Below, piece after piece: positions 1,473 through 63,999 of a stretch of DNA of 64,000 bases; position 1 is the first letter of the stretch; each line of letters starts with the position of its first letter. This DNA is from Bilabrum cf. latius. Its lineage: Eukaryota. A program made the position numbers and the translations under genes. The notes under the pieces were generated by a model that did no database searches, was not told the origin of the DNA, and saw only the letters and a program-made list of their open reading frames with translations. The DNA is taken from contig OZ237771.1 in assembly GCA_965178125.1 (NCBI GenBank), positions 310,001 to 374,000 of the forward strand. The letters are read 5' to 3'.

Positions 1473-2864
1473 ATGGCAGGTGCGGCTGGCTCTGAGCCTT
1501 CCAATGATTTGGTTAAATATTCAGATCTCGAAGAGAAAACCGAAGGTCTCGAGCGTCACTTTGAAGCGCCCACCGAAATATCACTTAGTACTGCAGATCC
1601 TTCTTCTGTTGTACTCGGTGACGTAGTGTGGAGCACGATCAAAACTCAGGTTGTCGTATTCAGCACTTTGGATCATGTGGTCGGCATGCCTGCAGGATTT
1701 GCGCTTGCGCTAGTCTACCAGTTTCACATCAGCGAGCTGGAGATTATTTGCGTGGAGACTGGTGCCGTGGCAGCGTCCATTCTATATGATGAAGATCAAG
1801 GAATATTTTGGGACAAGTTCTTGATTCCACCTTCAGGCAAATTCTACCACATGAACGGAGACATTCTTAAGATCGATCTGCACGCCATGGCGGCTTCATG
1901 CGTGGTAAGTGGCCGCGAACTATCGAGAAGTGTTGGCATTCTCCACCATGATATCGGGCTCTTTGTTAGCCCTCTTACACCGTTTCAGATATACATGATA
2001 TCACCTGTGTCTGGGAAAGAGGTCTGCTTCGAAGCATCCGAGATTGAGGCAGTCGTCCCGGATGAGGATGAGCGCACAGCTGGCAAGCCGCTGGTTACCA
2101 AAGTGAAAAAGACGTACACTGAGTCGCTGCTACATGCATCCGTATTCAAGGAGCAGATTGTGGGGTGCGGGAGGTACAGCCAATTTACGGTGCTGCAAGA
2201 CGGAAGGGTGGCCGCGTGGGCTCCGCACGGGGAGTGCTTCGGGGGCTTCACAGTGTGGGACCCTTCCACCAACAAGACCAGGTTCGTCGCTGACAACTTC
2301 ATTCTGGAGGGAAATCCAAGAGTTGATGGCTGGTCAAAGACTGTCGAAGATGATATCACATCGAAAGGCACTGTTCAACAGGTGGGCCCGTCCCTCGTGG
2401 CTCTGTTCCTGCAGCGACACAAATTCGGTATCGTCATCATTGATGTGGACCGAATGGAGCAGGTGGGGCTGGCGGCGGAAGGGGAGCGCATCCAGCTTGC
2501 CGAGGCGGTGCAAGTGGAAGGTCAAGATCACTGTATGCTGATTGCTGGGACTGTTGCGCCTGGTACTGTGCAGGTGTGGAAGCCCGTGAGCGCGAAAGAG
2601 GGCTGGTACAAGAAGCAGCAGGAGGTGGAGATCGGTGAGAAGGTGAAGGGTATCACAGCTCTTGAGGTTGTCCCAGGGGGCAAGTTGCTGGCTGCAGGGC
2701 GAGTGCATGGCTTCGACGAGCGGCCGATCAAGGAGCATCCGATCGTGTGTTTGCAACTGGATGGGGTCGATGTTTAGCTCCCTGAAGGTACCGGCAAGGA
2801 GGATCGTTCCACTGGTGACAGTAAGCTGCTGGCCAAGCTGAAGGAGGGAGGGTATATGAAGTAA
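1473..2864 (+). CDS. Hypothetical beta-propeller/WD40-like protein (~463 aa, one internal TAG)
   Basis: ORF 1461..2777 reads through TAG 2775-2777 to TAA 2862-2864. Propeller-like strings: FTVLQDGRVAAW, FTVWDPST, GTVQVWK, ITALEVVPGGKLLAAG. Confidence 0.7.
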
Positions 2865-3188
2865 CTGTTAGCGGCTACCCGGAACATGAATCCGCATCAG
2901 ATCCGCATTCGTCTGTGTACCAGTGTCAAGGACCACATTGCTAAGGTTCGTGCCTTCTTATTAGCTAACTTAGACTATCACAAATCGGGACTAGTTTTTC
3001 AAATCGAAATTAAAGTGTCACACTTGTCTAGGTTCCTCAGGAGTAGAGGTTCTTGGGACGAGCAAAGCGTGTGAAAGCACATGGATATATACCTAACGCC
3101 GGATGGGGTTCGGGTTTGATGCGACGATGGGAGCGCAGGTAGCCAGGTCTCCCAGTTTGTTCCGGTATAGGGCCGGTCGCAACCGTGA

Positions 3189-3689
3189 TCGACGCGCATC
3201 GGATTTATGTGTTGCAGCTCTCTCTGTGTGAAGGAGAGGGACGGAGTTTGGGTTATCTCGTTCTGCGGCGTCCGGGCGTTCGTGGCGTGGGCAGCAGCAG
3301 CGGTCCTCCCAGCCCCAACAGCTGCAAGTGCATCGGCGCGGCAGCTGGCGCTCAGCTGCCCCAAGCAAGGGCCGGTTTTCGTGGTAGGGCAGCGGCCGCT
3401 GCTCAAGGCCACTGTCGTCCGCGTGCTCCGTGGCTACTGCCAGCTCGGCGAGGCCGAAGCGGTGCACGGCCACTCCATCCGCATCGCTGCAGTGATGTGC
3501 CTGGACCGAGCAGGCGTCGCCTTCGAGACTATCAGGCGATTTGGGCGATGGAAGTCAGCTTCTTCGTGTGAGGTATACCTACGTTCAGCCAGAGAGGGCC
3601 TTTCCCCTCTTGAGCTCCGTGAGTCAGATCTCTAGTTGAAGCAGCCAGCATGGGTGCTGGCGCGCGCCCTTCTGCTCGCGGTGACGTGA
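3189..3689 (+). mobile_element. Relic C-terminal tyrosine recombinase of a DIRS/Ngaro-type retrotransposon or Crypton-like element
   Basis: Translation shows HGHSIRIAA...IRRFGRWKSASSCEVYLR (H-x-x-R, GRW-x-S and catalytic Tyr region). TGA at 3186 lies just upstream. No RT/RNaseH or terminal repeats seen. Confidence 0.75.
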
Positions 3690-3941
3690 TTCACTCGGGC
3701 AGAGGCGTTCAAGACATGGCACTGAAAGAATTGGCGGAGTGGTGCAGTGGCTCAGCTCGGACCTGGATGAACAGGCCCAGAGCAGCGCCAGCCTGCACAG
3801 CTTTGTCAAGGACTTGCCATGTCTGATTGATTGGGAGACTAGTTTGCGATATCATCACGAGCATCAAGGTTATAAAGCAAAATCGATCATCCAAAACAAG
3901 CACACGTCCAGCTTGCTGTCCCCAGACCCAGAATCAACTAT

Positions 3942-6900
3942 TTAAAGTGTGCAAGTTCCCCCCGCCACAGTGGCACTAGCAAACTGTGACCTGATGAAGT
4001 ACTCCCAGTCGTGAGCTGGTACCCCGAGCATGAAGGACCGACGGGATGCGTCGTACCTGGCCTACTCGGCTGCATCCAGGTTCTTGTCGTATGACCACGT
4101 TGAAGTACCTGCCAATCCAGCGCCCGTGTCCTTGCCTTCATCAGCAGCTTTCACGAATGCACCTCGCTTCGCCTCAAATGCATCGTTTGCTTCCTTGAGA
4201 GCATCTTCCCTTGAAGGCAGGTAGGCGTCCAGCCAGTGTGTTTCGCCGGATTTTGCCATCACCTGCAGGCACATGCGCTGGGTGATATGGGTGTGCCTGC
4301 TGTGGAGAGCGTGCGGAATCGGGTAGGGCTCCCTGAGCGACTTCAGGTGGAACTCATATCCCAAGTCCACTCCCAGCACAGCTCGCATTGCGTGGCGAAT
4401 ACTGCTCCTGGTCTCGGTCATGGACTCGAGGTGCGGGTAGATGCTGCTGCCCTTGGAGCCGCTGTTGCAGGCAGATGGGAAATGCATGAGCAACGCAATG
4501 GGCTAGTACTTCTTAGGCTTAGCATACAGCGTCCAGGTGCCCGGCACAGTGGGTCGCTTCCAGACAGGATTGAGTTCAATAGGCGGCTCATCACCACCGG
4601 CACCGGTGCTCTCAGCTCGAAATACGCTCATTGGCGACATGCGGTCAACGGAGACCTCGAGCAGAACCGTGCCATCGATCTTACGTTGTGAGCTCGTCTG
4701 TATCACAAGTTCACGGCTTCCACCCATAATTGGCCACCATAGTGGAACTCCTGTCTGGTGCTCACTGCTTGGATCATGAAGCTGGCACCTGGATTCACCG
4801 CGCCGCACGCCCTCAAGACTGTAGGCATCCAGCTTGAAGGTATTGCCCAGGTCCCGGTGATCGATCCTGCGGTACTGCACTGGAATGCCGTTGTCCAAGT
4901 CGTGACGAGTATCAGCCTCTGCTTCAGGTACAGATGCACTGTCGGACTTGCCATCCGGCGTTGCTTCGGTTTGAGAGTACGCCTCTGCTTTCGAGTGCAG
5001 CACATCACCTACCACCTCCCGGTACAGCGACCGCTGCTTGCACTCGTCACTGCCCATCGCATGGACTTTGGACCAGTCCAACTTCATGCTCACCGCGTCA
5101 GGGATGGTGATTTCCTCAGGCTCCTAGAACCCTGCTTCCAGTTGCGAGCAGAACCCAGTCACCACGCAGATGCGACGAACCGGGCACAGCTTCCTCGGCG
5201 AACGCTCCCCAGCACCGCCACACGACGGGAGCCAGTGGCCACAGGCATCGGAGGCACCACCTTCCGGCATGTGCTTCTTCGGGCAGTACCCCTGGCTGCC
5301 CACGTCCAGCATGGCATGCAGCGCCACCCAGCTGTAGGCCTCCATGGGCAGCATGGCGCACGTGCGGTCCAGCCTCTCGTCTGCATCCGTCGGTGGCTTG
5401 TCTCCGAACATGGCCTCGAAGCTGCTGCACACGGACTCGGAAGGAGGATCGAATCCCGTCTCTCCTTTCTCCGCGCAGGCGAGACGAGTGGGAGCATCTC
5501 CTGGATCAGCTGGCGGTGCACCTGCAAGAGTCTGCCTGTGCTTTGGTCCCCCGGTGAGCACATAGTCGGCCACCACGTTCTGGCACACTCGACAGCGATC
5601 TGTGACGTGATGGTCGTCCCTGTTCTTCTCAACGGCATCGCTGTCATCTGTGGCGGGATGCACCGTGGTTGCGTCCTCGTTGGCGATCTTGACCTCCTCG
5701 TGATTGATCAGCCGCTTTCGGTTGAAGGCTTCGTAGTCTGCATCGAGCTGCTCGCAGTCTTGGATCGGCAGGGACCGCACGTCGTCCCATCCGTTGGTTT
5801 GGAGGCTGTTGTGCTTCTCGATGAACAGGTTCAGGGTCTCGCACGTGTCCTTCGGCAGACCAGCCCTCCCATTCTCCAGCATCGACAGCACGGTCTACGC
5901 CGCGTGAGACACAGCGACGATGTCGGAGGCCTTGCTGATCCGCTCTTCGGTCGCGGCCCAGAGCAGGAACTTCCTGGCTTTGGCGGCCTGGAACACCTGA
6001 GACATCGTCATCTCTTCATCGACAGAATTGCCACTCGCGTCCACCAGGAACCCATTCCCGCTGACGAAGCACCTCTTCGCGATCGCCTCCATGTCTTCAG
6101 GATTCTGCTCAGTCTTGCCGGCGCTGATGGCCACCTGATGGCATGCCTTGCGATCCAGCACGATGCTGTACGAATGGCGCGGCGACACCTGCATGGCGAT
6201 GGGTGCCGGCAGCTCGCTCACCCTCCTTGCCCACTGGTCGATGAAGCTGCCCTGCGTGTCCTCGTCCTGCGTGGCGCTGACGAGCCCTGGCTCGCCCCCC
6301 TGCACCACGATCTTGACGTCTCTCACAAGAGAGGCAGTGCGGCTGGATTTGGAGTTGGACCACGAGGCCGAGAGCTCCACGGCTTGCTTGCCACCGCTGG
6401 CAGCGAGGTTGCCCAGCATGAGGGCCCGTCGGATGGAGGGGCCGTCTGCCCGCAATGTCTTGGTAGTAAACGATGTCGTAGTTGTTTCCTGCTTACCGCC
6501 CACGTTGCGAACGTGCACAGTCTTGTGGGTGGTGGTGTGGTTCGATGCAGTCGCCTCAAGCAGGTCTCCCATCGTCATTGTGTCTGAGTGGTCGAAACCG
6601 CCCTGAAGGCTCAATGCAGCGTGCTGGTGTTCTTTTTGAGACAGCGATTCGTCACTGAGCTGCCGGATGATGGAAATTTTGCCTCCCATTGTGATGTTGC
6701 TGACAACAATCTCGCCGTACGACTGGTGCAGGCTTCGCAGCAACATCTTGACAGAGGCTGGCGACATGTTCAGCAGTTCGGCGCGCTTCTCCCGAGTGAT
6801 GCCGTTGGTAGAGCTGAACTGTTTGACAAAATCCAGTTGTGCTTTTGTCACTCCGATACTTAGGATGGCTTTGAGAAATCCAGTGTCGATAGCATTGGAG

Positions 6901-7932
6901 TCGAATCCGCGAATGCACTGTACAGTATCGAGGTTGTTCCAGTCGTACGCGGTCTCATCTTCTGGACCCGCTCTGTATTCGACAGGGAGAATCGGCTTCT
7001 GAGATCCATCCGCTCGACCTATATCATGACATGCCGCAAAGAAGTTCGTCTCCGGCACGACCCCACGGTAGTGCTCAACGGTTCGAACATTCGTCACGGT
7101 TGCGCCAGTTGAATAGCCGGCCTTGGCTTCGCTCGATCCCCAGGTAGCTCCAAATCCAGCATGGATGGTCCCAAAGGTCACGCCCAGACCAATTTCCTTT
7201 CCCTACTCGGTCACTTTGTCAACCTCGTCCTTCATGTTCGCGATCTTCAGCGCAGCTCTGGTTCGCTGTAGCATCTGGACGTCAATCTGCGAGCAAGCAG
7301 TAAATACCATTAGCATTGGGGTATACTCTCAATACGTTTCTTTAACTTTACTGTGGATCGTGGTGGTCATGTCTTGAATGCATAGCACCATACTTTTGTT
7401 ATTCAATTGCCAGCGAATCAGTTGCGAACCTTCGGAATTCCGTGACAAACTATTGAATGGTCGCAAAGTTTGCCGCGCAGGGGGGATTTGTCGACCTCAT
7501 GTCTTTCGATCATGTCACCGCGGAAAATACGATGTGCGCTGGCATTCACGTTACACGAATACATCCATGGATGCATGAATTGGCAATTGTGAGCCTCACG
7601 TGCTTTGGTTTTACCCGGTGGCCGAGTAATGGATGGTGAAAGAGTTCACATTGGCTTGTGTCCGAGCAAACGTCTCGATTTTTCACGATTTGACCGAGCA
7701 AATGATCCGGCTGCCCTGTTGGTCCGAGCATAAAAGTAGATGCAGATCTACCAAGGACCTCTATCCCCTCGATTGGAGCCGGCTGCGTGGATTCCAGGTC
7801 AGCAGCACTAGCCTCAGTATTACCGAGTTCAACAGCTCCTACCATTTGCAATACGCTCGCACACGTTGCGAAAAGGACAATTGTTACCACGACAACCATT
7901 TTACTGGCTGTTGTCCGACTAGATTGCCCCAT
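3942..7932 (-). CDS. Secreted MACPF/perforin-like protein A (~1,225 aa); exons 7932-7600 and 7286-3942
   Basis: Hydrophobic leader MVVVVTIVLFATCASVL; GIEVLGRS N-motif; signature-spaced YGEIVVSNITMGG; VQGGEPG...W...PAPI. Phase-0 intron GTGAGG(7599)...GCAG(7287). Same-frame ORFs are joined by TAG at 7203, 5895, 5124, 4503 and 4062. Ends TAA 3942-3944. Confidence 0.8.
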
Positions 7933-8083: not shown

Positions 8084-11000
8084 ATGTCAATTGTTTCCCT
8101 TAAGTCACGCCACAATGCATATGTGGTAGCTTTGGGACTGTAGCAGATGCTGTCAATGGCTGCAATGGCTGCAATGCTCATGCGTGTAGGATACGCTCAT
8201 GGAGCTGCTACGAAGGTAAACACGCATCCACTCATAGTTGGTGTTAATGCGCTAGGCAGAGGCGAGTCTCTTTGGACCGGAGAGCCTCTCCCCTCGGTTT
8301 TATCGTAAGCCAGTGCAACAGTAAACTTTGCGCCTCGCTATGTATAGACTGGACAAGCAGAAAATCTTTCGCATTTGACCATCTGTGTATCAGTTCAATT
8401 CAATTTAAACTAGTTGTTGTCCGCAGGCTTGGATGTCACCAAGAGTTGACCACAAAACGTTCGTCTTACGCCCCAACCTCGAAAGATCTTCTAGAGTTCC
8501 TGGATATTTCGTCTACTGTTGACTAGCACGGGTATTCATCAAGCAGATGTGAAAAGCTACATCATCCAATGATGCAGGATGTATGGCTCCCCGGCGAAGT
8601 CAGTGAAACATCAGCAGCCCTTGCTGTGTCTGCTGTGACAAGCACCTCTGTGGACCGCGCTCTGGACTCGGCGTCAGCGTTTAGTGCAAAAGGGGGAATC
8701 TCTGGAATGGTACCGACCCCCGTTGTTACCATCGACCTGAGTATTTCAGTATTTCACCAGTCTTCGTCCCAACGCTCGAAGTCCACGCACGTCACCAGAG
8801 TTACAGCGCAGTAGAGCGTGGTAGCATACTCCCTCACGATTCAGACCAATCACCTCGTCCCTTCCTGCGAGCAAAATTCCCAAGGTAAAACTGTCTGTCT
8901 GATGGCCAATACCGCCCGCCATGATCCGGATTTTGTGCTAGAAGCAACCGGGCTGCCAAGCCCTCTTGCGAACTCTGAGGCGATCAAGACAGGGGTGCAG
9001 CTGGTCGCAACGTCTTTCCTGCAAAGCCGGGGCACGAGTATCGTCACGGGCGCAAGACTCGGAGGTCGGATCACGCTTGTGCAGCTTGTGGACGAGGAGA
9101 AGAGCGAGTCGTCTGCGAGCCAGTCGTTTTCGGCAAAGCTCAGCACGTCCATGGTGGAGCTTCTTGACGGCTCCACGGACGTGGCAGTATCTGATGCCTC
9201 TGAGGCGCGCAAGGCGAGTATCAACGACGGGGCAGGTGGAACTATCACGTAGGAGCACAGTACAGCTGTGGTTGCAAGCACTGGACACCACCCTGATGCC
9301 GCTTTGGCCAAGCGTGACGCGAGCCAATTCGCCGATGACACCAAGGGCAAGCACCTCGCGGCTGTGGCTGACGTCGCTAGTGCCACCATGGGTTCGGCGG
9401 GGGCTCCCCAAGTCCAGCTAAGCCTCGGGTGGAAGTCGAAGTCATCAAAGAAGGAGGCGTCGCAGCGCAGCCTGCTCAACACGAGGGCCGAAATCGAAGG
9501 TGGTATTCCTGGGCTTACTTCCTTGTCAGTGCGACCGTCATCTACTGCTGCCGGAGACAGCTCAATGTCAGCTTAGATCAGTGGATTACCCCAGTGGATT
9601 AACTCTGCCCGTGCAAACGGAATAGTGCAGGGCTCGACCAGGTCTGACCTGCTCTAGTACCTTCCGTTCGTCGAGCAGTGCAATTCAGACAATTCTAGGG
9701 CAGTCATGCAATAGCTTGTGAGGGGTGCATGGTGGAGCTCTGGTGATGCAGGGCAATCTGTCGATAGAGGCGCTGCGGCTACTGCTTCTGGGTCTACCAA
9801 CGGCCAGACGGGCGGGCAAAGCGACGCAGAATCCCTGCCTGCTCTCGTGCTCAAGTACATTAGTGATGGTGACCCCTTCAAGCACCTGCAGGTCATCGAT
9901 GCTCGCACTGACGAGGTTGAGAAGCTGCAAGCTGACCTCAAAAGGAACAGAGTGAGCTCGATCGATGCACACTCAGTCCGCTTCATGAACTTCGGGACTC
10001 TTCTCTAGTCGGCCGCCATGGTAGCTGCACGAAATGGGGGATCGAGCTGCTAGTCGATACATGGCATTGAGTCAGTCGCTCCTGGTATGGCGAGCCTTGA
10101 GGAGCAAGGTGTGCTGTGCTGCACCAACAGCTAGGCGTGCAATTCAAGATCTATGACAACGATGATGCGGACATCGATGCGTGCGGCAGATGCCACGCCA
10201 TCCGACTGGATCGAGGCGGCTGAAGAATCGCAAGGGACGAACGGCTCTTTTCACCGCCATGTGCTTGCAGCTGCGGCTGTTGAGCTCAACACGATGGTAG
10301 TGCCGGACACCGCTGTCATTTTGGTGTCGGCATCATGTTGGTAGCCCGTACCAGCTAGGTCAAGCGTGGGAATCGGAGACCGGAGCGCGGTTCTCTTTTT
10401 CAATAAGGCGATCAAGATGTGGGTTGTCGCTGACCCTGCCGCGACAAGGCTGCTCACCACTCAGGAGGCGTTCGGGTGTTTTCCGCCCGACCGGCTCGCA
10501 GATGACGCTGGAGCAGCGCTGTTCACGCCAAAAGCTGACAGTGCGAGCTTCGATGCAATGGCGTATCTTGCGACAATCATGTCGTTCCGCCTTATCACAG
10601 AGGGCAAGACCAGCTTGATATAGCTTGCGATGCGCAAGCATCCGCTCTATCTCGAGGAGCGGTCCTTCTCGACTGTTTCTAACGCCCAACTCGAATTCCA
10701 GATGATTGGAGTACTCTCAGGGGATTCCGCAGAGTCTGAATCATCAACAAAAGTTGAAGGCGACAAAGGCGGTAAAGGCAGTGATATCGGTAAAGGCGAC
10801 GAAGGCGCTCAAGGCGACGCAGGTGGTGACGGCGACAAAGGCGGTGACAGCTCGACTCTACTACAGAGTCAGGCGCACGCATCATCGAAAGACGCAGCCG
10901 TCCAGCGAGGGATGCGCCGTGTCAGGCGCAACAGGCGCCTTCACAGACCGCACCATAAAGTCAAGAAGGATCCTGTCGGCAAGGTGCATGTTGCCTTTTT

Positions 11001-11700
11001 TGATGTGGTGCGCGGCTCTCTTCATGGCTCCAGCTCGGGTGTGCAGCCGGGAGACGTCACGTTCGACCCCGCCCACATGGGAACCTTTGGCGCGGACATG
11101 CGCGACGAGCACGCAGATGCTGAAGCATGGAAGCGAGCCCAAGTGGCGATGCAGCAACCTGTGTGCGTGCATGGTGGTCCGCATCGCGTCATTGCACGCA
11201 AGGAATTCCTGCTGCTGGCCCTTGGTGAGCTGAACCGCTTGCACAAGAACCTCCGAGCATCTCATGAACAGTGCGATGCGAAATCGCTCAAGGCTCTAGA
11301 GATCGGCAATGATGCATGCACTGGAGATGGGGATCCCTGCAATACCATGGAGGAGGCCGTCGCTAAGCTTGGATATAGCGGGGCGATCATGGGAACGACC
11401 AAGCCAGCATGCCGTGACAGCGCCAGGGTGAAAGAGACCGCTGCAGTCAATCGAAAGCTTGCACTGGACACACGCGGAGATCGCAGCGCGGTCCATGCCG
11501 TGGGCATGCACCTCACCACAATGAGAAGGATCCTGGCCACGTCTTTTACTACTGGGGGTGTGGAGCCTGTCATTGTTCCCGAGAGTGGCGACGTAGGCAC
11601 CGGAGAGCGCGCTAGATCTAGTCAGGTGCAGCCCGCGGCACAGTCTGGGAATGGCGATGCCTCACCGGAGGGTGCCAGCATTGATGGAGAGGATTCTTAA
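8084..11700 (+). CDS. MACPF/perforin-like protein B (~1,164 aa); exons 8084-8304 and 8427-11700
   Basis: GVNALGRG N-motif; RGTSIVTGARLGG; IEGGIPG...QWINS. CEKLHHPMM aligns with CELFHHPLL of gene A. Intron GTAAGC(8305)...CGCAG(8426) restores the frame. 12 in-frame TAGs and no TAA/TGA until TAA 11698-11700. Confidence 0.8.
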
Positions 11701-12776: not shown

Positions 12777-12811
12777 GACCAGCCATATATAAATTTCAAC
12801 CCAAACATTCC

Positions 12812-37100: not shown

Positions 37101-37156
37101 AATCAGATTCAAGTGCAACCTCGCTAGTTTTGCTGTTCCTGCCAGGGCCTGCTGCA

Positions 37157-37187
<31 letters not shown>

Positions 37188-43420: not shown

Positions 43421-44315
43421 TCATGTGCCGCCATCACTCCCCGACGAAGGCACGCTCGGCATTCCCAGCTGGGCCATCATGGAAGCAAGGTCCGCTTCTG
43501 ATGACGATGAGGCTGCGTTTCCAGCGCCACTGCCCCCGTTGGCACCAGCTGCAACGGCCCCGCCACCCGCACCGACCGCTGCAGCAGCTCGCCCAGCCGC
43601 CGTCCTGGTAGGCGCAGCGGCCGCTGGTGCCGCTACACCCGTGCCCAGGGGAACCGATCCAGCGCTATCCATCGCAGCAGACGCCTCAAGTCCCAGTTCA
43701 CCCATGACTTCGCCCAGCACGTCCTCTTCTTCCTCGGAATCGTCGTCAAAGGCCGAAGCGAGCGCGTCATTCATCATCTCCTCCGTCATCCCCATCTGCT
43801 CGCTCACTCGCGCATACTCTCTGGCCATGCCCGGTATGTTTGCTTTCCCTACGGCATCGGAACTTCGTTTCATGGCCGAGGCGGCGGAGCCCAGAGCGAT
43901 ACCCGTAGTTGCTTGCGCTGCCATCGCGGTTACTTGAGTGGAGATCGCACCAACGTGGGACTTGTTCACTTGTATTGTTTCCTTTTGTTTTCGTATCTAC
44001 ACCAATTGCTTTGCAAGCTGCCGCGCAATCTTCCTGTTACCTCCAACGCCAGCTTCCTTCCTGACCTAGGAAACAAGTTTGGCCTCCTCTCGCTCTAGTT
44101 CCCGGTACTGCCGGTCAAGATCACGAGTTGAGCCTCGTATTTCCCGTTTACTTCGTTTGCTTTCGGCTGGAGTACATGAAAAGGAGAGAAGCAGTAGATG
44201 CCCACGTGTGAATGCAATCGTGCTGCGTTTCCGTCGTGTGCATACCTAGTATTGTCTCACCCTTGATCTAGTCTCTAGCAGACATTTTAGGTTCACTAGA
44301 CCCAAATGAAAACAT
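43421..44315 (-). CDS. CHMP2: ESCRT-III subunit CHMP2/VPS2 (CHMP2B-like); exons 44315-44261 and 44166-43421
   Basis: Spliced translation MFSFG...REIRGSTRDLDRQYRELEREEAKLVS[TAG]VRKEA...LAKQLV[TAG]IRKQK...MGMTEEMMNDALASAFD...EEDVLGEVMGELGLE. Intron GTGAGA...CCAG. Ends TGA. Confidence 0.9.
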
Positions 44316-50900: not shown

Positions 50901-53900
50901 CAGAAAGGCAGCATCGCCTACCAGATCGCTAGCGGGTCCCACGCCGCCACGGCCAGGAGGCAGGCGAGGCAGGCGCGAGCTGCGCTCCGAAGGGCGAGAT
51001 CGGGGGCGCACTCGTCATACGCAAGGAGGAGGAGCATTTCAGTGATGCCAACCGAGGACGTATTGCCTGGTCTGCGTGGGCCAGGCGGCAGCGGAGAATC
51101 AGCTGGTGCTGCTGCTGACGAAGATTCGAGCCGCGGAGCGATGGATGGAATGGGTTCGCCATCGGCCGATGGCAGGTCTTAGCGACCCGCTTCAGCCGCA
51201 TCTACCTCCTCTAACGCATCGCACTCGTCACACGCATCTAGAGCCTCAAGAGCATCATCACGTGCCTCGGCTGCGGGCGGGCGATCGAGGAGATCCGGGC
51301 GCCGTCATGGAGGCAACACGGTGGATGGAGGCAAGGGTACGGGCAAGGGCATAGGCAAAGGCAAAGGCAAGGGTGGTCCTGTCGACCGAGTGGCCCGCAG
51401 TGGACGCGCACTCGTCACAGGCACGCACGACAAGGGCCTGGTTGTGATGGGATCTGGCGTGTCCGGCGGGACAGATGGTGATGGTGGTGAGAGGAGACAT
51501 AGCGTTGTGTCCGTTGAGTCCATGCATCGGTCAGGAATCGCTGGTCGGAAGAGCAGCATCGATGCAGGGCGTCCCTCCTCCGGTACCGTGAGGCGTGTGG
51601 CGAGTGCATCCGCCGCCGTCAAGATGAACGATGCGGTCTCGGGCGACTCTGTAGGCGGCGACGTCACGGCCATGGAGGCGGGGTCGGGCGATATCGGGGG
51701 CCTGACTTCCTCCTCGAGCGCTGGCAGCCTCGCGGAGAAGCGTGTCTTGCGGCGAGAAGCAGAGCGGTACCACGCCTGGATGGGTCGGGAGGCATCATTG
51801 CTGCGAGCCCATGTGGGGCTGTCACGCGGTCTAGGCACAGACAGGTGGGGTGACGGTGACAGCGATGACGAGGCCGAGGCAGCTGATTTGGCGCTGGCAC
51901 TGGTGCAGCGGGACAGGCGCAGGGCACGGCATGGGGCCAGCAGCAGGCTGCTGCCGGAGCTGGATCGGGCGATCGGGGCGGTGGCGGTGGAGTCGGCTGC
52001 ACTCGGCCCGAGCAGCGGGAGCGGGGGCAGCGGCAACGATAGCCTTGCGGCGCATTCGGTGGGTGGCGGGGACGATGGCGGGCAATCCACCGGTGGATCT
52101 CTGCGTCTGGGCTCCAGCACGATGGGGGCCGGCAGCAGCGGCAGCAGCAGCGGCAGCCCGATCGGGCTCCACATCGGGGTAGGCACGGAGGGTGAGGATC
52201 ACACCGGGGAGGGCAATGCTGGGGGAGAGGAGGAGGAGTGGGCGAGGGTGGCTGAGCGGCTTGGCTTGCCACCGCCATTGCAGGTGGCGGATATCCTGCC
52301 TGCACGCTCGGTTGATGGAGGTGCTGGAGACGGGGGGGTCGGTCCCCACGGAAAACTGACACTTGAGGCAGCCCGTGACCTCGTGCAGAATGACCCCGCC
52401 AAAGCATGGAGGATGGGCAGGGGTGGTCCGCACGGTCTCTCTCCGCAGGAAACTGCTGCTGCACTGCAGCGAAGGTTGCTTTCGATGCAGGCACGGTCAG
52501 ACTGGTCCGGTGCACATGCAGGTAAGGGACAACACAGGGCCCTACCATCGAAGGGAGCGTCAGGGCCAGGGTCAGCGGCAGGAGCAGGAGCAGGAGCAGG
52601 AGCACTTGTCCCGAGCAAGATCGGATCGGGGTAGATCGCACCACGTCAGGGTCAGGACAGAGTCAGTCCTCGAGTCAGGCTCATGCATCCGTCTGACTCA
52701 TCGCAATCCATCGGTGGATTCTCTGCCGTCGTACCCAGCGTGGAAGGCAGCCCAATGGCGAGCGCCAGCAGTGGGGGCGGGTGGAGCTAGGCTGATGATG
52801 ACGAGGAGCAGGAGAGGGCCAGGATGTACGCTGTGGAGGGACTGTCAGCCATTGAGTCGCCAATAGGTATGGGGGGACGTCCAAGCGAGCACAGCAGTCC
52901 GAGCGAGGCGGGCAAATCGCCAGGTTCGCATGGCTCGGTCGACGGCAGCACTCGCGACCTGACGGACGGCACTACCTCCAAGCAGCAGGGCAGTACCGAA
53001 GCTGCAGGTGGTGCAGGGCATGGTGGTGCAGGGCATGAGGTCGTCGATGGTACCGCTGGTACCCCTGGCGCCAAGTCCGCGGTCGTCGAAGAAGCAGCAG
53101 CTGGAGCACAGGCTCAGACCACCGCCACCGCCACCGCCACCGCCACCAAGCCCACGGATGGCCGGAAACCTACCGGTGCATCCACGCAGCTCAGGGCAGA
53201 TCCAACGCTGAAGGAACTGCCGGTGCTAGGTGCACCGCACGATAGCGCGCAGTAGCACCAGTCGCCCGCAGTCCAACGCACCTAGGTGCAGACCAGGCAT
53301 CGCCACGTGTACGACCGCTATTACGCAAGTAGTGCGACTCGCGGGGTGCGCATAGCAAGGGGGGTGGTGCGAACCGGGGGCTCACAGGGTCGCGGAGCGA
53401 ACGTTCGTCAGGAAGGTTCGTCGAGGGCCTCGTAGTCCTCAATCGAAGTGAAGGGCAGGCTGCTGCCCCCTCCCCCACCCCCAACATTCTTCGCCAGGCA
53501 GTTCATGGCTGCAGCGGGAGCACCGGATGGAGAGCCCAATGCATAGGGAGGGGATGGGCAGCAGCCAGATGGGTCCACTCGTCACACAGCTGCGGCCCAT
53601 GGGTCCCTGGCACCCTCCCATGCCGATCCCATGACGAATGCATCGCTCGTCACACCGCGCCTGTAGGTAACGGGTGCTGCGCCGTCCAATTCCCCACAGC
53701 ACGCCCAGGCGGTAGCATCATCCAAGCCATCAGGTGGTAAAACCGGTCAGGAAGGCCGAGGCCGAGGCCAGCCAACGGTGCAACGGTCATCTGCGTCCAA
53801 GCCGGGCATGGGTGAAGGTCCAATCGACTACGGATCATTAGCGTAGGAAGACCGGCTGATCGAGGCAGCGGTTCTGGCCCTGCAAAGGCAGGAAGTTGCC

Positions 53901-56654
53901 ATCAACGTGTACTGGAGGCATGCAATGCAGCAGAGGGACGCGCAGTGGCAGGCGCACATGCAGACGGAGATAGCGCGATCCGTCGCAGAAGCGCTCCTGA
54001 GCCATGGGGTGCAGTTCACTGCAGCGTGGCACGAAGGGAGGGCGGCTGCATTCGGCGAGGAGGCGGCTGCTAGCATCGAGAGCGGCAGTGCGATGCACCT
54101 TGCGGCGGCCGGGTCCGGCATGGCACCGGGAGGCATTCCCCGTGATTTTGGTGCAGTGCACGGTGGCGCAGATCCCCCCAGTGGCTCCGGATCCACCCGC
54201 GGGTCTTACACCGGGCTTGACCCGCCCGTGCCGAGCTACCATCCACCGGACACCTCTGCTCAGCGTGACGCGAGCGCCTGGAGGCTCGGGGTGCAGGGGT
54301 CAGACAGCTACCAGTCGCTCCGTGGGGGCCATGCGCAGAGCCGCGGTGGGATGTAGCCGACGGGGGGACAACCCACCGGTGGAGTGGGACAGTCGTCTGG
54401 ATCCTTCGCGACTGCGCATTCGACTGGCGGGGTGGGGGGTGATATCCCCCCCCACCTACCCCCGGGGGTCATGCTTGACCCCACCCAGTACGGGGCCTAC
54501 CATGGTCGTCACACTCGTCACATAAGACAAGTTAGTGGATCAGGTTTGGTAGACGCGTCAATGCAGGTGCAGTCGCTTTCAACCCCCCGCGGCACCTCCA
54601 CCAGAGCCCCCCCCTATTGGGGACACGGGGTGCAAGGGCAAGGACAAGGGCATCGGCAGGATCATCTAGCCGCACAAGGTGCACAGCCAGGTCCTAGTGT
54701 TACACAGAGGTCTGGCCTGCTTTCTTCTAGAAGCGCACCAGATCTCCTGGATCTCGAGTCGTAGACACATGCCTAGAGACGGCAGGCCGCGGGTGCGAAT
54801 CCCGGTGACGTGGTGGCCGTACCGGGCGTGCTTTCCAGGACCAGCGGAGGATACAACGATGTGACAAGTAGAGACTCAGGGTCATTTGTGGGACGTGAAG
54901 TCCTCGCTGCATTCCAGGGTGGCCAAACCGGCATCGCAGGGGAACGTCAATCCACCGGTGGGTCCGGGGGAGCAGGCGACCAGAGGCAGACAAGGCGGGG
55001 CGGCCGCGGCCCGGCGGTGGTGTTCGGCATCGCCGGGCGGGAGCCGTTTTCCAGGCGGAGGCGGGTGGAGGGTGAAAGTAGCGTGCGGTTTGCGGAACAC
55101 TTGCAGCAGCCTCAGCAGCAACAACGGCAGCCTGGAATCAGCCAAGGAGGCAGGTGGCAGTCGGGCCAACCCTCTCCGTCGCTGGAGCAGCTGCACGCCA
55201 TGCAATTCCGGTTATCTGACGGCAGGTTCCGCATGACGGATAGGCGCCGCGCGCGGTCCAGCTCGCCACGACAGAGGGGTAGGGGTAGGGGTAGTGGAGG
55301 TTTAGCCGCGGCCGGCAGTGATCTATCAGGTTCCGCAGGGGCGCCGCGCAACTGGCCCTGGCACGTAACCGATGATCACCGGGGTGCTGCGTCCGACAGC
55401 CGTCGCCAGTCGTCTGCGGAACTTCGAGTGCGCGGCGCCCCGGCCGCCTCCCTCTCCCACGAAGAAGCCGCGCAGGTCCGGTGGCAGCAATCAGGTGGCG
55501 GACGACCCATCCAAGACCCCGGCCGCAGTTCCGGTTTCCTGAGGCAGCGGGGCCCCGGCCTAGCCCCCGAGGGAGTGCTGCCCAGGCAGGAGCGGGTGCA
55601 CGAGGTCACGTTGCCGAGGAGCGACAGTGGGCATGCACTGCCACCGCAACCGGGGAACAACTCGCGATCCCCAGCTAACGAAGGGGCCAGGGGTGGCAAG
55701 CGGCCTGCTGGAAGAGACGAGGGAACAAGGGCAGGACAGCATGGCGCTGGCAATGGCAGTGCATCCACCGGTGGATCAGCAGCTGTCGCCGCCGCCCCAA
55801 GGGGGCAGGGCAGCAGCCCAGTGGCAGTGCCCAGCGCGCTTCCTGCGGGCCCTGGGGAGACTGCCTGGCGCGAGGGCCTGCGTGGGGCTGTTACTAGTGT
55901 GACGAGTGCGTATGGTTCGCAGGTACAGTCCGCACAGGCGCAGGCAGCCCGTGCCATTGCGGCAGCGGCGGCCACTGGCGCCGGCTTTCAATCATTCGGA
56001 GTTCCTGTCAGGGATGGTCGCAATGACGGTGCTCATATGCACCAGTCCGTGTTTGCCCACCGCCGCGAAGTGCCCTCCTGGCACGCGCAGTACATGGCCG
56101 AGCAAGCGATGCAGCGCGATCAGCGGGTCCTCGGTAGATTATTCTCGGATGGAGGTGCAGACGGTCAGCGGCGCAGGCGACGATCGCGGGGGCAGGGGAG
56201 GCAAGCCCAGTAGGATGCTGCGGGAGGGGCCCGTGCCGTTGAGCAGGTGTCCGATGCGTACGACAGTTCGTCTGATGCGTACGCCGGTTGGTCTAGTGAC
56301 GACAGCGGAGCGATGCTACTGTCAGAGCAGTCCGCTGCCTCACGCTACTACAATGAAGGAGCCTATGGCAATGCATCGTCCGGGCAAAGTGGTAGTCGTA
56401 GTGCGGCTGTTAGCGGGGAGGAGAGTGACGATGGTGACCGGGGCGTGACTGGAGCGAATGCACCCGGGCCTCTAGGTGGGGCAATGGCAGGTAGGGCGAT
56501 CGGTGAGGGGGCGGCCATGCGCCGAGTTATGTACCAGGAAGCGGCAAGAGCCAGGCAGGTGTGGCTGGATGCTCAAAGGGCTGGGCTGGTCCAGTCGGGG
56601 GATGTGATCGGGAGGCAGGGCTCGAGGAGGAGGGGACAGGGGGGGCACTGGTGA
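47976..56654 (+). CDS. Giant hypothetical G/S/R/A-rich protein (~2,892 aa) with short coiled-coil segments
   Basis: Ten track ORFs in one frame; the gaps translated by hand contain only TAG. Ends TGA 56652-56654. No recognisable domain. Confidence 0.75.
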
Positions 56655-56856: not shown

Positions 56857-58512
56857 TCAAGTGCCCGGGCCTGTCGCCCCCACACCTTGACCGCCGGCCG
56901 AAGCCGAAGCCGAATCAACGCTCCGACCATCTGAACCACCCGAACAACGACTCTCAAAGCCTGAGGAATCGCAAGCCTTGCGCAAACAGCCCAGCATTTC
57001 GTCCACGGTTTCCTCGCCGGCCGGGGCCATTACACGCTCCAGAGGGCCATCATCCGCCACTCGCAATCGATCGGGAAGGCCCTCAAGCACGAGGCGCCGG
57101 TTCGACTCCGAGTAGACATCTCCTTTTCTTTCTTTGTGAAAAGCGAGACCCATCTGTGTAAGCAGGTCCTTTTCGTCCTCCACCAATGCCTCGATTGCGA
57201 CGAGTCCTTTGAAGCTGCTGTCGATCGTGTTGGAGGTCTTGAGCTTCTCCATGAGCGTGCTGGGGGTATCCATGCCAAATGAAGAGGTCCAGTTGCGGTA
57301 GGCTGCCCACATCACTCCGACCGTCTCGTGAGCACTCGTCACACCAGCCAGGGGCTTGGCGGAGGGGTCTTCGGCGATTGGGGCGGCGGCGCGGTCGTCG
57401 CGGGACCCCCCCTCCGCGATGCTCGCACTCGTCACGCCTCCCTACGGCACGCTGATTTCCACTCCGGATCCAACCGCCTTGATGTTTCTAATGTAGTTGG
57501 CGGCCTGGTCCAGCTCGAACGCGACGCACATGTCCGGAAACCAGGGGGGCAGGCGGTCCCGCAACCCCGGCCGGCGCAGCACCTGCCACATGATCGAGAG
57601 GCTGAGCCTGCTGGCGTCGTGCTCCGCGCTGTATGATTTCGTATCCGGATCCTTGGAGCCGAAGGCCTTGCCGTGGTGGTGCTGCACGAAGTGGACAATC
57701 TCGTGCGCGGGCACGGACACGCACGCGATCGCCTGCATGGCCGCGTACGTGGACGCGTGTGGCACGTCCCTCTCTCTCACCAAGAGGTCGCAATGGGCCT
57801 CTGTCCAATTTGCGGGGTTGGACAATCCCATGGTGGAGCGGGCTGGATTTGCCTCCCAGCTGATCTCATATGGGACCATGAATTGTTCGCCCGATATGGT
57901 AGTGTACGCCGCCCGAAACGAATCGATGGCGTCCTGCAGTGGAACGTGAGGCATGCTCGTCTGCACGTACCGCAGGATTTCCAAGCTGATTGTTCGCGTC
58001 AATCCCAAGTAGTCGAACGATTCCACTTCATCGTAGGTGCTGGATGAGTCTGACGTTTCATCCGCCGCCGCGCGATCTTTTTCTCCTCTATGATTCCTGC
58101 CGACGATTCTCGCGAACGGCTTGCTCACCGCGACCGTAGCTGCATCCATCTACTCAACGCTGTCAACTGGCTTGCCGTCGTACAAGAGTCGAACGTGTGT
58201 TTCTAATTCACCGAATTCTATGTGTATCTGAGCGTCACGCAAGCCCAACGCGATTGTGTCAGCTGCGCCACGCAAGAACCTGGCGTGGAAGCGAGTGGAC
58301 GACGCTTTCAGATCGATCCAACCACGTGCTGTGCTAGGCGCTGCATCTGGGTCCGATACATTGCTTCTATCTTTAGCATCAAGCACCGGACGTAAAATAC
58401 TTCTGAAGAATCGGACGGCCACAAACGCTGCGAGAACGCGCAGTGCTCGATCAGTAAGGATAGGATCAGTCGGGTGCTCGGAGGTGCTGTCAGATCCTGC
58501 CGCCCCAGCCAT
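56857..58512 (-). CDS. Putative zinc metallopeptidase (HExxH...E, gluzincin-like), ~551 aa
   Basis: Three same-frame ORFs joined by TAG 58150 and 57442. Motif AHEIVHFVQH...YSAEHDAS. Ends TGA 56857. Confidence 0.65.
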
Positions 58513-58687
58513 TTACGAGACCAGGTAAATGATTCGATTAGAACGGAAGGAACTGATTAATTTACTCTTTGGAATAATGAGCGCAATGGGCCGTCGGCTA
58601 CATCCCGGAAGTGCAACTCGAACAATGTTTGCTCCGCTTGCTGGCTATTCAATACCTTGAAGCGCATCAGTGCACTACAGAACAGGC

Positions 58688-59929
58688 ATGACTACATCAC
58701 GCATGTTTGGGCTGTTCGCCCTATCTGTGCCGATTGCATCAAGCTTTGTGTTTTTAAGTGCAAATGCGCGCCATACGGCCGGGTAGTGCTTGGGTTTTGT
58801 AGTCGACTGCGGCGGCACGCCAGATGATCATACCGACAACAGTGATGCCTTCGAAAGGTGCTTCCAGCTGGCAAGCAAGCAAAGCGGGTGCATCGTGATC
58901 GAGCCAGGCACCTACTAGTCGAGTGGGGCGATTCTGAACGTTTCGAACGTGTTTATCCTGGCGCATCGCGGCGTCGTCCTACGGCCATGGCATGGGATCA
59001 CGAAATCAGAAGGTTTCTTCCGAATCGGGTAGCCGTACCTATCAACTCAGGCGCAACTCGTCCAGAACGTGACGATTGCCGGCTTGCTCGGTGACGACTT
59101 GGACGAGCAACCAGAGGGGCGTATCAGGGATAGAGCGATCCATTCAGGGGACATTTTTACCATGGATTCCAGTGTAGCGCTAGTGGAGCCCTGGAAAATG
59201 CCCGCCGTGTCGGTCTGCGGCTGGGTGCGGAACTTCACCATCGCCAACATGAGGGTACTGCAGGCCAACCCCGACGTAAACCAAAGCGCACGCTACCCGA
59301 ATCAGCTCGCCGCCCTGAATTTCAACCAGGACCACGATGCAAGTGGCAATCGGCGCAATCCCACAGACGGTGCGATCGAGAACATAACGACCCTCGGTGG
59401 GACGTGGGGCTACGGCACCGTGCAGGTGCGCAGCGGGGAGCGCTTGCGGTTCCGGAACATCGATGGGACCGGTGGCATCACGCTGCGGCTGGAGAGCGGC
59501 GGCGGGGGTGACGAGTACATCGACCAGGTGCTGGCGGATAATATAACGTGCAGATACGGAGATTCCGCGCTGATGACGGAGCCGCATGTGCAGCAGAACG
59601 GGGTGTTTCATGCAACCGGCCTCCAGTCGGTCGGATGCAGCGCCACTGTTCTCCTAAACGGGGGGTACTCCCAGCGGGGACTGCCCCCGGGGCACTTCTC
59701 CAATGACAGCACCGTGAATGGTGTGACGAGTGCGTACGGGCACCCGGGATGGGCGCAGTGGAGCAAGACCCAGCACAACGCCAGCGCATGCGCCGCCTGC
59801 CTCCACGAGAATTCCAACATGAATTACAAAGTGACTGTCAGTGGTGTGACGAGTACTGGGTACCCCGCTCCCGCCAATCGGACCACTTGCATATTCGCAA
59901 ACCGCAACAACCCTTGCCCGCTTGGATGA
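58688..59929 (+). CDS. Secreted glycoside hydrolase family 82 (iota-carrageenase-like beta-helix), ~413 aa, intronless
   Basis: Signal peptide; DCGGTPDDHTDNSDAF...IVIEPGTY; WGYGTVQ...FRNIDGTGGITLRLE...ADNITC..GDSALMTEPHVQQNG...SVGC. Collinear with Alteromonas fortis CgiA as recalled (FGYGLIQ...FRNLHSEGGIALRME...ADNIRC...GPHFMKNG). TAG at 58784, 58916 and 59030. Ends TGA. Confidence 0.85.
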
Positions 59930-60184: not shown

Positions 60185-63100
60185 TCAGTTCAGCCCGGCC
60201 CCGAGACTCTCCAACCCGGGCCACACCGCACCAGCAGACGTACCAGAGCCGGTCGCCCCCCCCGCCCCCGCCCCTGCAGCACCTGCACCTGCACCCGCTG
60301 CACCCATGCCGTACCCTGCACCTGCCATCGAATAAGTGGGATTGGCAGGGACGGCACTCAGCACATCCACACCGGTGCTTGGCACGCCCGCAGTGCCCGC
60401 ATCCCCACCACCACTTCCAAACACGTCGTACGCCCCGAGCGCGCCCCCATTGCCGAACAGGGACGAGGTGAACGCAGACATGTCTGAGGGGTCCCCCCCA
60501 CCCCCCAGACTCGGCAGGATCGGATCAGACACGCGAGGCAAGCCGCTTCCCCGGCTCAATGCGTTCCCCACACCTGCGCTTGAAGTGCCACCAGTGACCC
60601 GCCCCGCTGATGTACCCACCGCACCCGCACCCGCACCCACGGACGAGTCAAGCCCCCTGGCTCCAGCAAAGCTGATCGGGGCATCGAAGCCGCGACTGCC
60701 GGCACCCGGGGCGCCAAGGCCCGGGTCCGGCCTGGCTGCTTGGCGCAAGGCAGGCGCGGGTGCAGCGGCAGGTGCTGGCGCAGGCTCGCGAGGTGCAACG
60801 CGTGGTGCAGCCGAGGGAGCGGGTGCTGGGGCGGTTGCGGTGCCCCGTCCCGAGCTCCCATCGTGTCCTGCTGCCTGCTTCTGCCCCTAGCCCTGGCCTT
60901 GGCCCTGGGTCTGGCTCTCGGCTGCTTCGAGGCCAGCTCCCGGCCTGACCCTGAAGACCGGGCCCCTGGGGTGCTTGATCCGATCCATGATCTCCACTGG
61001 GATCTTGCCCCTCTTTGCCAGCTGGCAGCACACCCCCTTGATGGTCATGGGTGCGCTTCTGATCCTGCAAAGGTCGCAGAATCCCTGCGAGCAGGCCTCC
61101 AAGTCGTCCATGGCTCGCCTGTGGAACATGCGCGTGTACTGCGCGTCCCATTCGTCGGCGATGAACTCGGGCTCATTGGAACCCACCTGCCTGGCTGCCT
61201 GGAACATGCGGTCGGCGAACTGACGAGCGTTCGAGGTGGGCTGCCCGGGATCTGACGCCCCGCCTGTGCCAGCGGTCCCGGCTGCACCGGCAGCACCAGC
61301 CGAGACCCTAGGAGCCGGCACGTCTACAGCCGACTCCGAGTAAGGGCCCCTCATCCCCGAGTCGATCTCGAACACGGGGCCCAGGGACTGCGCGATCTGC
61401 ACGCCGAACCAGGTCTGCTTGCACAGCCTCACGCACACTCCCTTGACCGTCTGCGGCGGGCTCCTGATGGTGCACAGGGTGCAGAAATCCTCCCCGCAGC
61501 CCTCCAGATCCGTCATAGGCATGCGGTCGAACAGCCTCGCGTAGTTGGACTCCCAGTCCTGCGCCTTGAAGGACCCGTCCTCCCTGTTTGACCTGGAGGC
61601 AGCCAGAGCTGCCTGCATCATGCGCTTCGCGAATCGGCTGGCGGCGTTGTCTGGCTCCCCTGCTGGTGCCCGTGGCTTGGAGGAGGAGGAAGAGGAGGAC
61701 CCCCCGCTGGGGAGTACCCCCCTGGTGGGGGCGGCGGACGGGGGTGGCGGCCCGGGGGCGGACTTGATCACCGAGGCGAACGAAGAGCCCCCGCCCCATG
61801 CACCTGCCTTAGGTGCCGGTGCCGGAGCCGGGGCCGGTGCAGGGGCCGGGGCAGGTGCAAGTGCAAGTGCTGTGGCGACTGTGCCGAGACCCGGGGGCGC
61901 CGACGGTGCAAGCCCCGCTGCCAGTGCGTCTCGCATGCCCCCGGTTGCAACCGACGATGCACTGGCGTCCCGCCCTCCATCTCCGAAGATTCCACTGCTT
62001 TCTTTTCCTGGCGTCTCCCTGATGAAATACTCCACTGCGGGCGGGTGCCCCTCGCGTATGCGCTGCACGGGCGATTCTGGGGCCAAAAGGAATGATTTGA
62101 TGATTCGGTCCAGGGTGGAGGCGTCGCGGAATTGTTCCCTGGCCTCTGCACTGCCGGTTTCCTGGATGGCCGCAATCACGTCGCTCGGCTCGCACCCCCG
62201 CTCCCCGGCACCGATGGCCACTGTGACGAGTGTGCTCAGGGCCTCCCTGACGACGTCGTCCTCCTCGTCGCCCTAGCTCCGAATCCACCGCTGGATGGCG
62301 GCGGAGATGACTGTCCCTGCGCCGCCGCTGGCCCTCTGCCAGAGGCACTAGGTCGCGGCACGGTCGGCCAGCGCCTGGTGCCCAAGCTGGGAGTGTAGCT
62401 GGTCTCGCCTGGCGCGCTTGTCGACCATGTGACGAGTGTACTGCGCCTCCAGCCCGTCCAGGTGCCGCAGGAATGCGATGCCCCGGACCGAGTGCGCCGC
62501 TACCACTGTGACGAGTGCTCTGGCGGCACCGAAGCAGAGCCGCATGCGGTCTGGGACGTCCCAGCCGGACTGCTCTGCCTGCGCGCCTGCGCTTAGCACA
62601 AGCAGAGCAGACGCTGCCTGCTGCACGATGTGAGCTGCTCCCATGGAAGCAACCCCCGCCGAGTCTGTAGGGTCTGCGCCCAGGGATCGCATGAGCTGCT
62701 GCGCCCCCGCCGCCCGCCCGACAGAGCTCGCCGGCTGGGCAAGCAGCCGAAGCAGGCTGTAGACATCCATCGAACGAGGAGACATAAGAGAATCTCCAGT
62801 TGAAGATGCTTCGCGGCCGTCAATTTGAGACGGCATGATCGGTGCCACAGCTTGCCGCATCGTTTCCATGCTTCGTTGGAAATAATCGAATGGCGAAAGC
62901 TCTGCTGGAAGCCACTGCGTCTGCGCGACAATCTCGTCGCCGTGACAAGTCGGTACGGTTGCATAAAACAAATTAGTAGCAGTCGCATGCTCTGCAGGCA
63001 CAGACTTGGCGAGCCCGGAAGGACGTACGCGGGCATCAGCTGGCAGAGCGAACACTGCGGGGCGAGCACATGGCGACGCCTCCCCCGAAGCCTGATACGA

Positions 63101-63283
63101 TTGTACTGCCTACCTTGAGATCCTAGACGCATCATCTGCGGACACTCTCATGGTTCCGTGGAGCATTTTTGCTACATCAGAAGCTTTGAGGTCCGATTGG
63201 GATGCTTGCCCAAGTCCCGCATTGTATTTGTCAGCATACTGCCGTGCTTGCGCTAAAAGTGCGCGAACACGGTCTGATTCCAT
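60185..63283 (-). CDS. Hypothetical protein (~1,032 aa) with two copies of a ~75-aa Cys-containing domain
   Basis: Four same-frame ORFs joined only by TAG (including 63110, 62348, 60887). Ends TGA 60185. Internal duplication DLEGCGEDFCTLCTIRSPPQTVKGVC / DLEACSQGFCDLCRIRSAPMTIKGVC. Confidence 0.75.
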
Positions 63284-63525
63284 ACTTAGTATATAAATAC
63301 TAGTCACACGGGCGACCGGATTACTATATGATGCTGGAGCAGCGATGAATCAGTTGTGTTCTAGCACGACCGGCCACTGGCATCAAGGATTCATCGAACC
63401 TTCGAAATGAACGTTCCCCCAACATTGATTTTTTTTCCACGGCTTTCGGATTGATAGTCCTACGACTTGCCTGTAAAACTTCATGCGTCCGCAACTCATG
63501 CCAACAAACAATAAATCATGTGCAC

Positions 63526-63999
63526 TCAAGATACCACGCACCCTTTATCATCATCTCTGGACTCCGCGGACCCCGGAGCTCCTCCGCCCGAAGCGCCCCC
63601 CATCGGGGGCCCGCCGGCCCCACCCCCAACCCCATCCGGATTGGGAGGGCTCGCCCACCCACTCGTCACACCGTTACCCGTACCACTACTCCCAATCCCT
63701 CCTGGCGGCGGAGCGTACCAACCCTGACCCCCGGGCCCGCCATTGCCACTGCCACTACCACTGCCACTGCCACCATACGTCGCACCAGAACTCGCCCCAG
63801 ACGGACCGAGCCCGCCGCCCTGAGGTGCCCCCGGGTATGCTCTCAGATCGGGAGCCGAAGGTCCGGGATACGCGGGTGCCTACGGGGCGTACGGGTCGTG
63901 TGACGAGTATCCCGGGCCGCCTACCATCGGGGCAGATCCACCCCCCACGGCCCCGGGGTCATCGCCCCCCCATGAGGGGGTTCCCGTTCCGGCTCCGAA
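63526..63999 (-). CDS. 3' end of a gene entering from beyond the window; G/P/Y-rich tail ending in a CaaX box (DDDKGCVVS-stop)
   Basis: Open frame 63999 to TGA 63526-63528 with one TAG at 63880. Not in the ORF track. Confidence 0.6.

Follow-up and report, generated by a model that had tools for sequence, protein, structure and literature searches.

The genes of a 64,000-nucleotide stretch of DNA (contig OZ237771.1, positions 310,001 to 374,000; this whole stretch is called the window, and positions are counted from its first letter) use a real and well-supported genetic code that gives UAG a sense meaning, most probably glutamine (Gln, Q), a code that is itself already known elsewhere, having been described for Iotanema spirale and some ciliates. 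We consider it highly probable that the window is nuclear DNA of an intron-poor eukaryote rich in guanine plus cytosine (GC, ~60%), whose cytoplasmic ribosomes read UAG as sense, most probably as Gln, and terminate mainly at UGA and also at UAA. A first-pass annotation, made from the letters of the window, had proposed UAG as a sense codon with UAA and UGA kept as stops. This proposal holds on codon counts, on TAGs present in a transcript contig, on a conserved CHMP2B protein that continues downstream of three TAGs and on a related environmental contig, L001.

In-frame TAG in the window, its transcripts and its relatives

The GC content of the window is ~60% along its entire length. Frames were taken from stop to stop with TAA and TGA as the only stops, or counted from the first ATG, and therefore contain zero in-frame TAA and TGA by construction. 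With TAG read as sense, the longest stop-to-stop frames reach 2949, 2898, 2629, 2580, 1150, 1128, 1054 and 802 codons, versus a maximum of 717 codons under the standard code. Reassignment of TAA or of TGA was tried as well and rejected, since the frames are not lengthened as with TAG (maxima of 717 and 1121 codons, respectively). Same-frame pieces parted by TAG form runs of up to 31; the annotation had rightly described such TAG-only runs, giving their length too low at 'up to 16', and the coordinates it proposed fit the frames (22569-30419 with 12 TAG, 31165-38907 with 30, 47976-56654 with 17, 12812-21661 with 23 and 8248-11700 with 11).

Counted from the first ATG, 12 gene-sized frames comprise 16,618 codons with 114 in-frame TAG and 0 TAA or TGA; in-frame TAG represents 0.69% of the codons and 14% of the sum of TAG, CAG and CAA. 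The two off-frames of the same 12 ORFs (open reading frames) contain 652 TGA, 261 TAG and 95 TAA, that is, a TAG share of 26%, TGA being 2.5 times as frequent as TAG. If this mix applied in frame, the probability for all 114 of 114 stops to be TAG would be ~1e-67 by our arithmetic. TAA and TGA together make up 1.69% of the six-frame triplets of the window, a rate at which, again by our arithmetic, a frame of 2580 codons devoid of both has a probability of ~1e-19. Damage or noise would give mostly TGA in frame; with 114 TAG versus 0, the observation is confirmed. The modelled frames end at TGA (9 of 12) or TAA (3 of 12), the number of ends being 12 and not the 15 (12 TGA, 3 TAA) announced. UAA as a sense codon was not seen: TAA is absent in frame from the 16,618 codons, it ends 3 of the 12 frames, and the maximum with TAA as sense is still 717 codons. 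The modelled features are as follows.

1473..2864, + strand: ORF of 463 codons, 1 in-frame TAG, ends TAA; no Pfam family; the 88%-identical relative P0177 has serine (Ser, S) at the TAG position
3942..7316, - strand: MACPF-domain ORF of 1124 codons, 5 TAG, ends TAA; Pfam MACPF, E 6.2e-7; partly duplicated at 1-1288
8569..11700, + strand: ORF of 1043 codons from the first ATG, 10 TAG (11 if the frame is taken from 8248), ends TAA; weak MACPF match, E 0.0047
12812..21520, - strand: ORF of 2902 codons, 23 TAG, ends TGA; LRR_6 N-terminus and long low-complexity repeats
22569..30419, + strand: ORF of 2616 codons, 12 TAG, ends TGA; labelled UPF2 at first pass
31165..38907, - strand: ORF of 2580 codons, 30 TAG, ends TGA; one TAG inside a Gln-rich run
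39432..41699, - strand: GH86-type beta-agarase or porphyranase gene of 755 codons, 5 TAG, ends TGA; PDB 8h97, E 5.2e-22; Pfam Porphyrn_cat_1; 385 homologues in the protein library
43339, - strand: polyadenylation site of the CHMP2B mRNA, 82 nt past the TGA; 25 T before 43339 in the X6 contig
43421..44166, - strand: exon 2 of the CHMP2B-type (Snf7) gene, in-frame TAGs at 44069-44071 and 44000-44002, TGA stop at 43421-43423; Pfam Snf7, E 4.3e-25; named database matches CHMP2B
44167..44260, - strand: predicted GT..AG intron of the CHMP2B gene, 94 nt, from the genomic sequence; the X7 contig match stops exactly at 44166
44261..44285, - strand: coding part of CHMP2B exon 1, ATG at 44285-44283, in-frame TAG at 44268-44270; spliced frame open to the TGA
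47976..56654, + strand: ORF of 2892 codons, 17 TAG, ends TGA; X6 contig pieces cover most of it with no difference
56857..58512, - strand: ORF of 551 codons, 2 TAG, ends TGA; spanned with no difference by contig pieces of X6 (56776-58565) and X7 (56782-58555)
58688..59929, + strand: GH82-type iota-carrageenase gene of 413 codons, 3 TAG, ends TGA; PDB 1h80, E 3.7e-20; two TAGs within the aligned N-terminal stretch
60185..63283, - strand: ORF of 1032 codons, 4 TAG, ends TGA; one TAG where a (Gly-Gln)n repeat calls for Q

The fate of the TAGs in transcripts was followed by comparing the contigs of four public runs with the window over 39000-58999. No run containing the window is on record as RNA, and the kinds of the runs were guessed by the tool, which labels X6 'RNA? 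(probably DNA)' and X7 'RNA?'; X4 is DNA-like, and its contigs repeat the window sequence exactly. A contig of 798 nt from X6 agrees with 43339-44111 at every letter and without a gap, carries 25 non-templated T and covers the CHMP2B TAGs at 44069-44071 and 44000-44002, both unchanged. Because the genome is not A/T-rich at 43339, the 25-T tail is read as poly(A), and because the tail is non-templated, the contig is treated as RNA-derived. An X7 contig of 883 nt matches up to precisely the predicted 3' splice site (44166) and leaves 63 letters unplaced, a length that exon 1 and a short leader would account for, joined across a predicted splice junction. Within the compared interval, 26 of the 29 in-frame TAGs lie in the listed X6 pieces and 11 of the 29 in the X7 pieces, all without difference, the GH86 gene being matched in the same way by the X6 piece 39175-41676; the other-letter positions listed over 42919-47482 include none within a modelled in-frame TAG codon. 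Parts of the window that X6 and X7 leave uncovered were given no weight as evidence. TAGs persist without change in a transcript contig that bears a poly(A) tail and is apparently spliced. This answers favourably the check proposed at first pass, that the TAGs be unspliced and unedited in RNA, for two CHMP2B TAGs in a contig from a run of guessed kind. The predicted CHMP2B intron and the polyadenylated transcript mark the window as eukaryotic nuclear DNA.

The same habit is found in a relative. L001, an environmental contig of 5379 nt and 52% GC recovered by a metagenome scan, encodes a CHMP2B that is 58% identical and has three in-frame TAGs. Its frames hold 20 in-frame TAG and 0 internal TAA or TGA in 1,343 codons and end at TAA and TGA (TAA for CHMP2B); the longest one spans 206 codons under the standard code versus 694 when TAG is read through. 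As a control, in-frame TAG was looked for in six other environmental CHMP2 loci (L002-L007) and found in 0 of 6. The database proteins P0001 (93%) and P0002 (60-63% identity) begin after TAG positions, as a standard-code gene caller would give. Scans for relatives in genome-contig and viral-contig collections found none. From these sequences, the UAG habit appears to belong to a clade and not to a single strain. In L001, joining the predicted CHMP2B exons 1 and 2 (2150-2380) would yield a TAG codon that the intron interrupts (T|AG).

The amino acid read at UAG and the rival explanations

We compared the window with L001 and 19 other homologues at the CHMP2B columns where either of the first two has TAG; all three CHMP2B TAGs of the window lie upstream of the conserved Snf7 core.

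Column 1: window TAG, L001 TAG; other homologues E 12, D 4, Q 2, M 1
Column 2: window CAG, L001 TAG; other homologues V 10, no Q
Column 3: window CAA, L001 TAG; other homologues Q 19/19
Column 4: window TAG, L001 CAG; other homologues Q 12, N 5, A 1, G 1

TAG is therefore exchanged with CAG or CAA at 3 of 4 columns. Profile log-odds were then summed in a Codetta-like manner, using CHMP2B and GH86 profiles built without the recoded sequences. Over 10 TAG columns, the sum is +6.8 for Q, followed by N (+1.5), E (+1.2), S (-0.2), Y (-4.5), W (-7.2) and L (-8.1); over the 7 columns of the window taken by themselves, Q is again on top (+4.7), with N, K and E behind by 1.9 to 2.5. The window TAG columns score 0.67 per column for Q, versus 0.69 at 28 true Gln columns, and are unlike Ser, Glu, Lys and Leu controls. 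One TAG fills the Q slot of the (Gly-Gln)n repeat and another one lies inside a Gln run. In GH86, the TAG columns are variable and mixed (K/Q/R/S/E), Q being commonest at one of them among the top 30 homologues (10/30) and in the top four at two more. Over these few aligned columns, UAG is best read as glutamine. Leucine was rejected as the meaning of UAG on its log-odds of -8.1. Paralogues within the window were also searched for TAG/CAG pairs; a single pair turned up, in an antisense frame, and says nothing about the residue.

By analogy with the other UAG=Gln lineages, as treated in PMC5304391, UAG would be read by a tRNA-Gln with anticodon CUA, which could not pair with UAA and which would probably descend from an extra copy of tRNA-Gln(CUG); in addition, eRF1 would have to recognise UAG less well. 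The 64-kb window contains 0 tRNA genes, no match to Rfam families, and no eRF1 gene, rRNA or marker gene.

Several points weigh against UAG=Gln as we read it. That no TAA or TGA occurs in frame follows from the way the frames were drawn, and the sample is 12 genes, with which an occasional use of TAG as terminator is compatible. The GH86 frame ends Gly-Ser-TAG-AAG-TGA (39432-39440, - strand), and this TAG, two codons upstream of the TGA, is the sole place in the window where TAG might terminate. The RNA nature of the X6 and X7 runs is a guess, the tool's own label for X6 leaning to DNA, and the support is at the level of DNA and transcript contigs, from which we infer the protein step. As to the amino acid, the call is based on 10 columns from two families, and the GH86 columns are variable at the TAG sites. 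In addition, 1h80 shows H and V where two GH82 TAGs stand, the residue of P0177 at one window TAG is Ser, and the exon-1 TAG of CHMP2B lies opposite CGA (Arg) in L001 by our reading, in a column that is poorly aligned in the homologues.

These points leave an unlikely place for a UAG that is sense but encodes another polar residue (Glu, Asn, Lys or Ser). Such a meaning would suit the TAG column common to the window and L001, occupied mainly by E and D (16 of 19) and by Q in 2, the Ser of P0177, the mixed residues of GH86 and the short distance of N, K and E from Q in the window-only log-odds. It is at odds with the three exchanges between TAG and CAG or CAA, one of them at a column that is Q in 19/19, with the top rank of Q in both the pooled and the window-only sums, with TAG columns that score as true Gln columns and not as Ser, Glu or Lys ones, and with the TAG in the Q slot of the (Gly-Gln)n repeat. 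More improbable still is a UAG of dual, context-dependent meaning, sense inside genes and stop at some of their ends in the manner of Condylostoma or Blastocrithidia: only 12 gene ends are available, frames delimited by TAA and TGA read through any terminal TAG, and the GH86 frame has its TAG two codons before the TGA, but 12 of 12 frames reach TGA or TAA and none must end at TAG. Moreover, the CHMP2B transcript ends 82 nt past its TGA, the base that follows in-frame TAG is not markedly biased (C 39, G 37, A 21, T 17), and Iotanema, which has the same code, showed no UAG terminator in 730 transcripts (PMC5304391).

There is, finally, very little chance that the TAGs are untranslated, whether the genes are defective, the assembly or the reads faulty, the RNA edited or the TAGs part of in-frame introns. 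Most long frames have no homologues and the case rests on nucleic-acid sequence, which gives this explanation its room; yet decay or error would also yield TGA and TAA (0 versus 114 TAG), independent contig sets, from four runs in all, reproduce the sequence and show no change at the TAGs, the polyadenylated contig retains them, and a 58%-identical relative keeps both the habit and one TAG position. It is close to refuted. Pseudogenes, sequencing or assembly errors and RNA editing were each rejected on the TAG-only in-frame counts and the unchanged contigs.

Gene content and other features of the window

The gene labels given at first pass fared unevenly. CHMP2 is supported by the Snf7 match, GH86 by PDB 8h97 and GH82 by 1h80, and ankyrin repeats are matched, weakly (E 1.1e-6); the UPF2 label of 22569-30419 has to be dropped, with 0 Pfam families and 0 PDB matches. 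The named CHMP2B database matches are all animal, at 32-36% identity, and are uninformative on lineage. Most of the long frames had no homologues in the Pfam and library searches, and P0177 was the sole homologue found with the 1473-2861 protein as query. The N-terminus of the 31165..38907 product matches the L001 frame 1-1215 (26% identity, E 7.8e-15). Within the 12812..21520 ORF, the same TAG is kept in each of three tandem copies.

GH86 and GH82 enzymes act on the wall galactans of red algae and are otherwise typical of marine bacteria. Their presence as eukaryotic genes (39432-41699 and 58688-59929) points to gene transfer and to an organism that lives on material from red seaweeds. The sole named relative of the GH86 gene is from the choanoflagellate Didymoeca costata (EukProt), whose homologue probably reflects gene transfer as well.

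The window also bears traces of duplication. A segmental duplication of part of the MACPF gene (1-1288 and 5160-6447, 98.3% identity) keeps an in-frame TAG in both copies, and a 257-bp piece of it is found inverted at 12527-12783. Tandem arrays occur at 11776-12392 (81-bp unit) and at 18519-18894 (18-bp unit encoding RQASPD-type repeats inside the 2902-codon ORF). The summed depth of the X4 contigs rises far above its baseline of ~61 (up to 1542 and 3469) at 43002-43120, 44336-47670 and 51006-51672, where these contigs have many joints and loose ends; these multi-copy stretches lie about the ankyrin-repeat region and within the 47976-56654 ORF.

The most over-represented 9-mer of the window, GTGACGAGT (consensus GTGTGACGAGTG), has 35 sites on both strands versus 0.47 expected (for example 13178-13186, 25275-25283, 49230-49238 and 59723-59731). 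Long ORFs contain 30 of the 35, with 17 on the coding strand (15 of which read Val-Thr-Ser) and 13 antisense, in all three frames, and the motif is absent from L001. It is a DNA-level word.

Comparison with known codes

Searches of open PMC papers and bioRxiv found neither a GC-rich, non-ciliate eukaryote described as using UAG=Gln nor one with GH86 and GH82; the runs date from 2025, and a publication may exist. Standard-code gene calling shreds these genes, so that a UAG=Gln table is needed to annotate the genomes of the clade. Such shredding is already visible: the database proteins of relatives start after TAGs, and the MACPF query of 1128 residues had no match among proteins of comparable length. 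Each new code that reassigns UAG and not UAA bears on how the two codons are decoupled through tRNA(CUA) and eRF1. Public DNA and probable RNA runs, together with the environmental relative, put the tRNA, the eRF1 and the date of the change within reach of a direct test. We regard it as possible, though somewhat less likely than not, that the organism of the window, P0001, P0177 and L001 form an undescribed clade that fixed UAG=Gln independently of ciliates and fornicates, with GC-rich genomes and UGA as the main terminator. If true, a rare stop codon would have been captured under GC pressure and not under the usually invoked AT pressure.

The code in which both UAA and UAG encode Gln (UAR=Gln, NCBI table 6) is used by many ciliates, hexamitin diplomonads, ulvophytes and Amoeboaphelidium. 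It resembles the code of the window in turning a stop into Gln, presumably via a mutated tRNA-Gln, and differs from it in that TAA is not sense here. In ciliates, the macronuclear genome is usually rich in AT, and the chromosomes of phyllopharyngeans are gene-sized. With 60% GC and at least 12 genes on one 64-kb piece, the window looks unlike ciliate macronuclear DNA, although a ciliate origin is formally possible.

UAG-only nuclear codes are known from a handful of lineages (PMC11687900). Among ciliates, these are Protocruzia tuzeti and phyllopharyngean lineages, UAG encoding Gln in some and UAA serving as stop (PMC11687900); as in the window, UAG alone is changed and UAA is kept. UAG is likewise decoupled from UAA in the rhizarian exLh, where it encodes Leu, and in Scotinosphaera, where it encodes Ser (PMC11687900, PMC5304391); the decoupling is alike and the residue differs, the log-odds in our columns being -8.1 for L and -0.2 for S versus +6.8 for Q. 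The list of UAG-only lineages drawn up at first pass was broadly right, and Scotinosphaera and Protocruzia are to be added to it (PMC11687900).

The closest parallel in code is Iotanema spirale (Metamonada: Fornicata). As presented in PMC5304391, its nuclear code has UAG=Gln with UAA and UGA as stops, an assignment once listed by NCBI as table 15; its gene ends are 104 UAA versus 15 UGA, and its eRF1 carries T32G in the GTS motif. Like Iotanema, the window has UAG alone reassigned, to Gln on our reading, with in-frame UAGs in conserved genes and no UAG terminators seen, here among 12 modelled gene ends. Unlike Iotanema, where ends are mostly UAA, the window ends its genes mostly at TGA (9/12), at 60% GC. 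Whereas Iotanema is a gecko-gut anaerobe known from its transcriptome, the code is met here on a 64-kb multi-gene contig that carries hydrolases of red-algal galactans.

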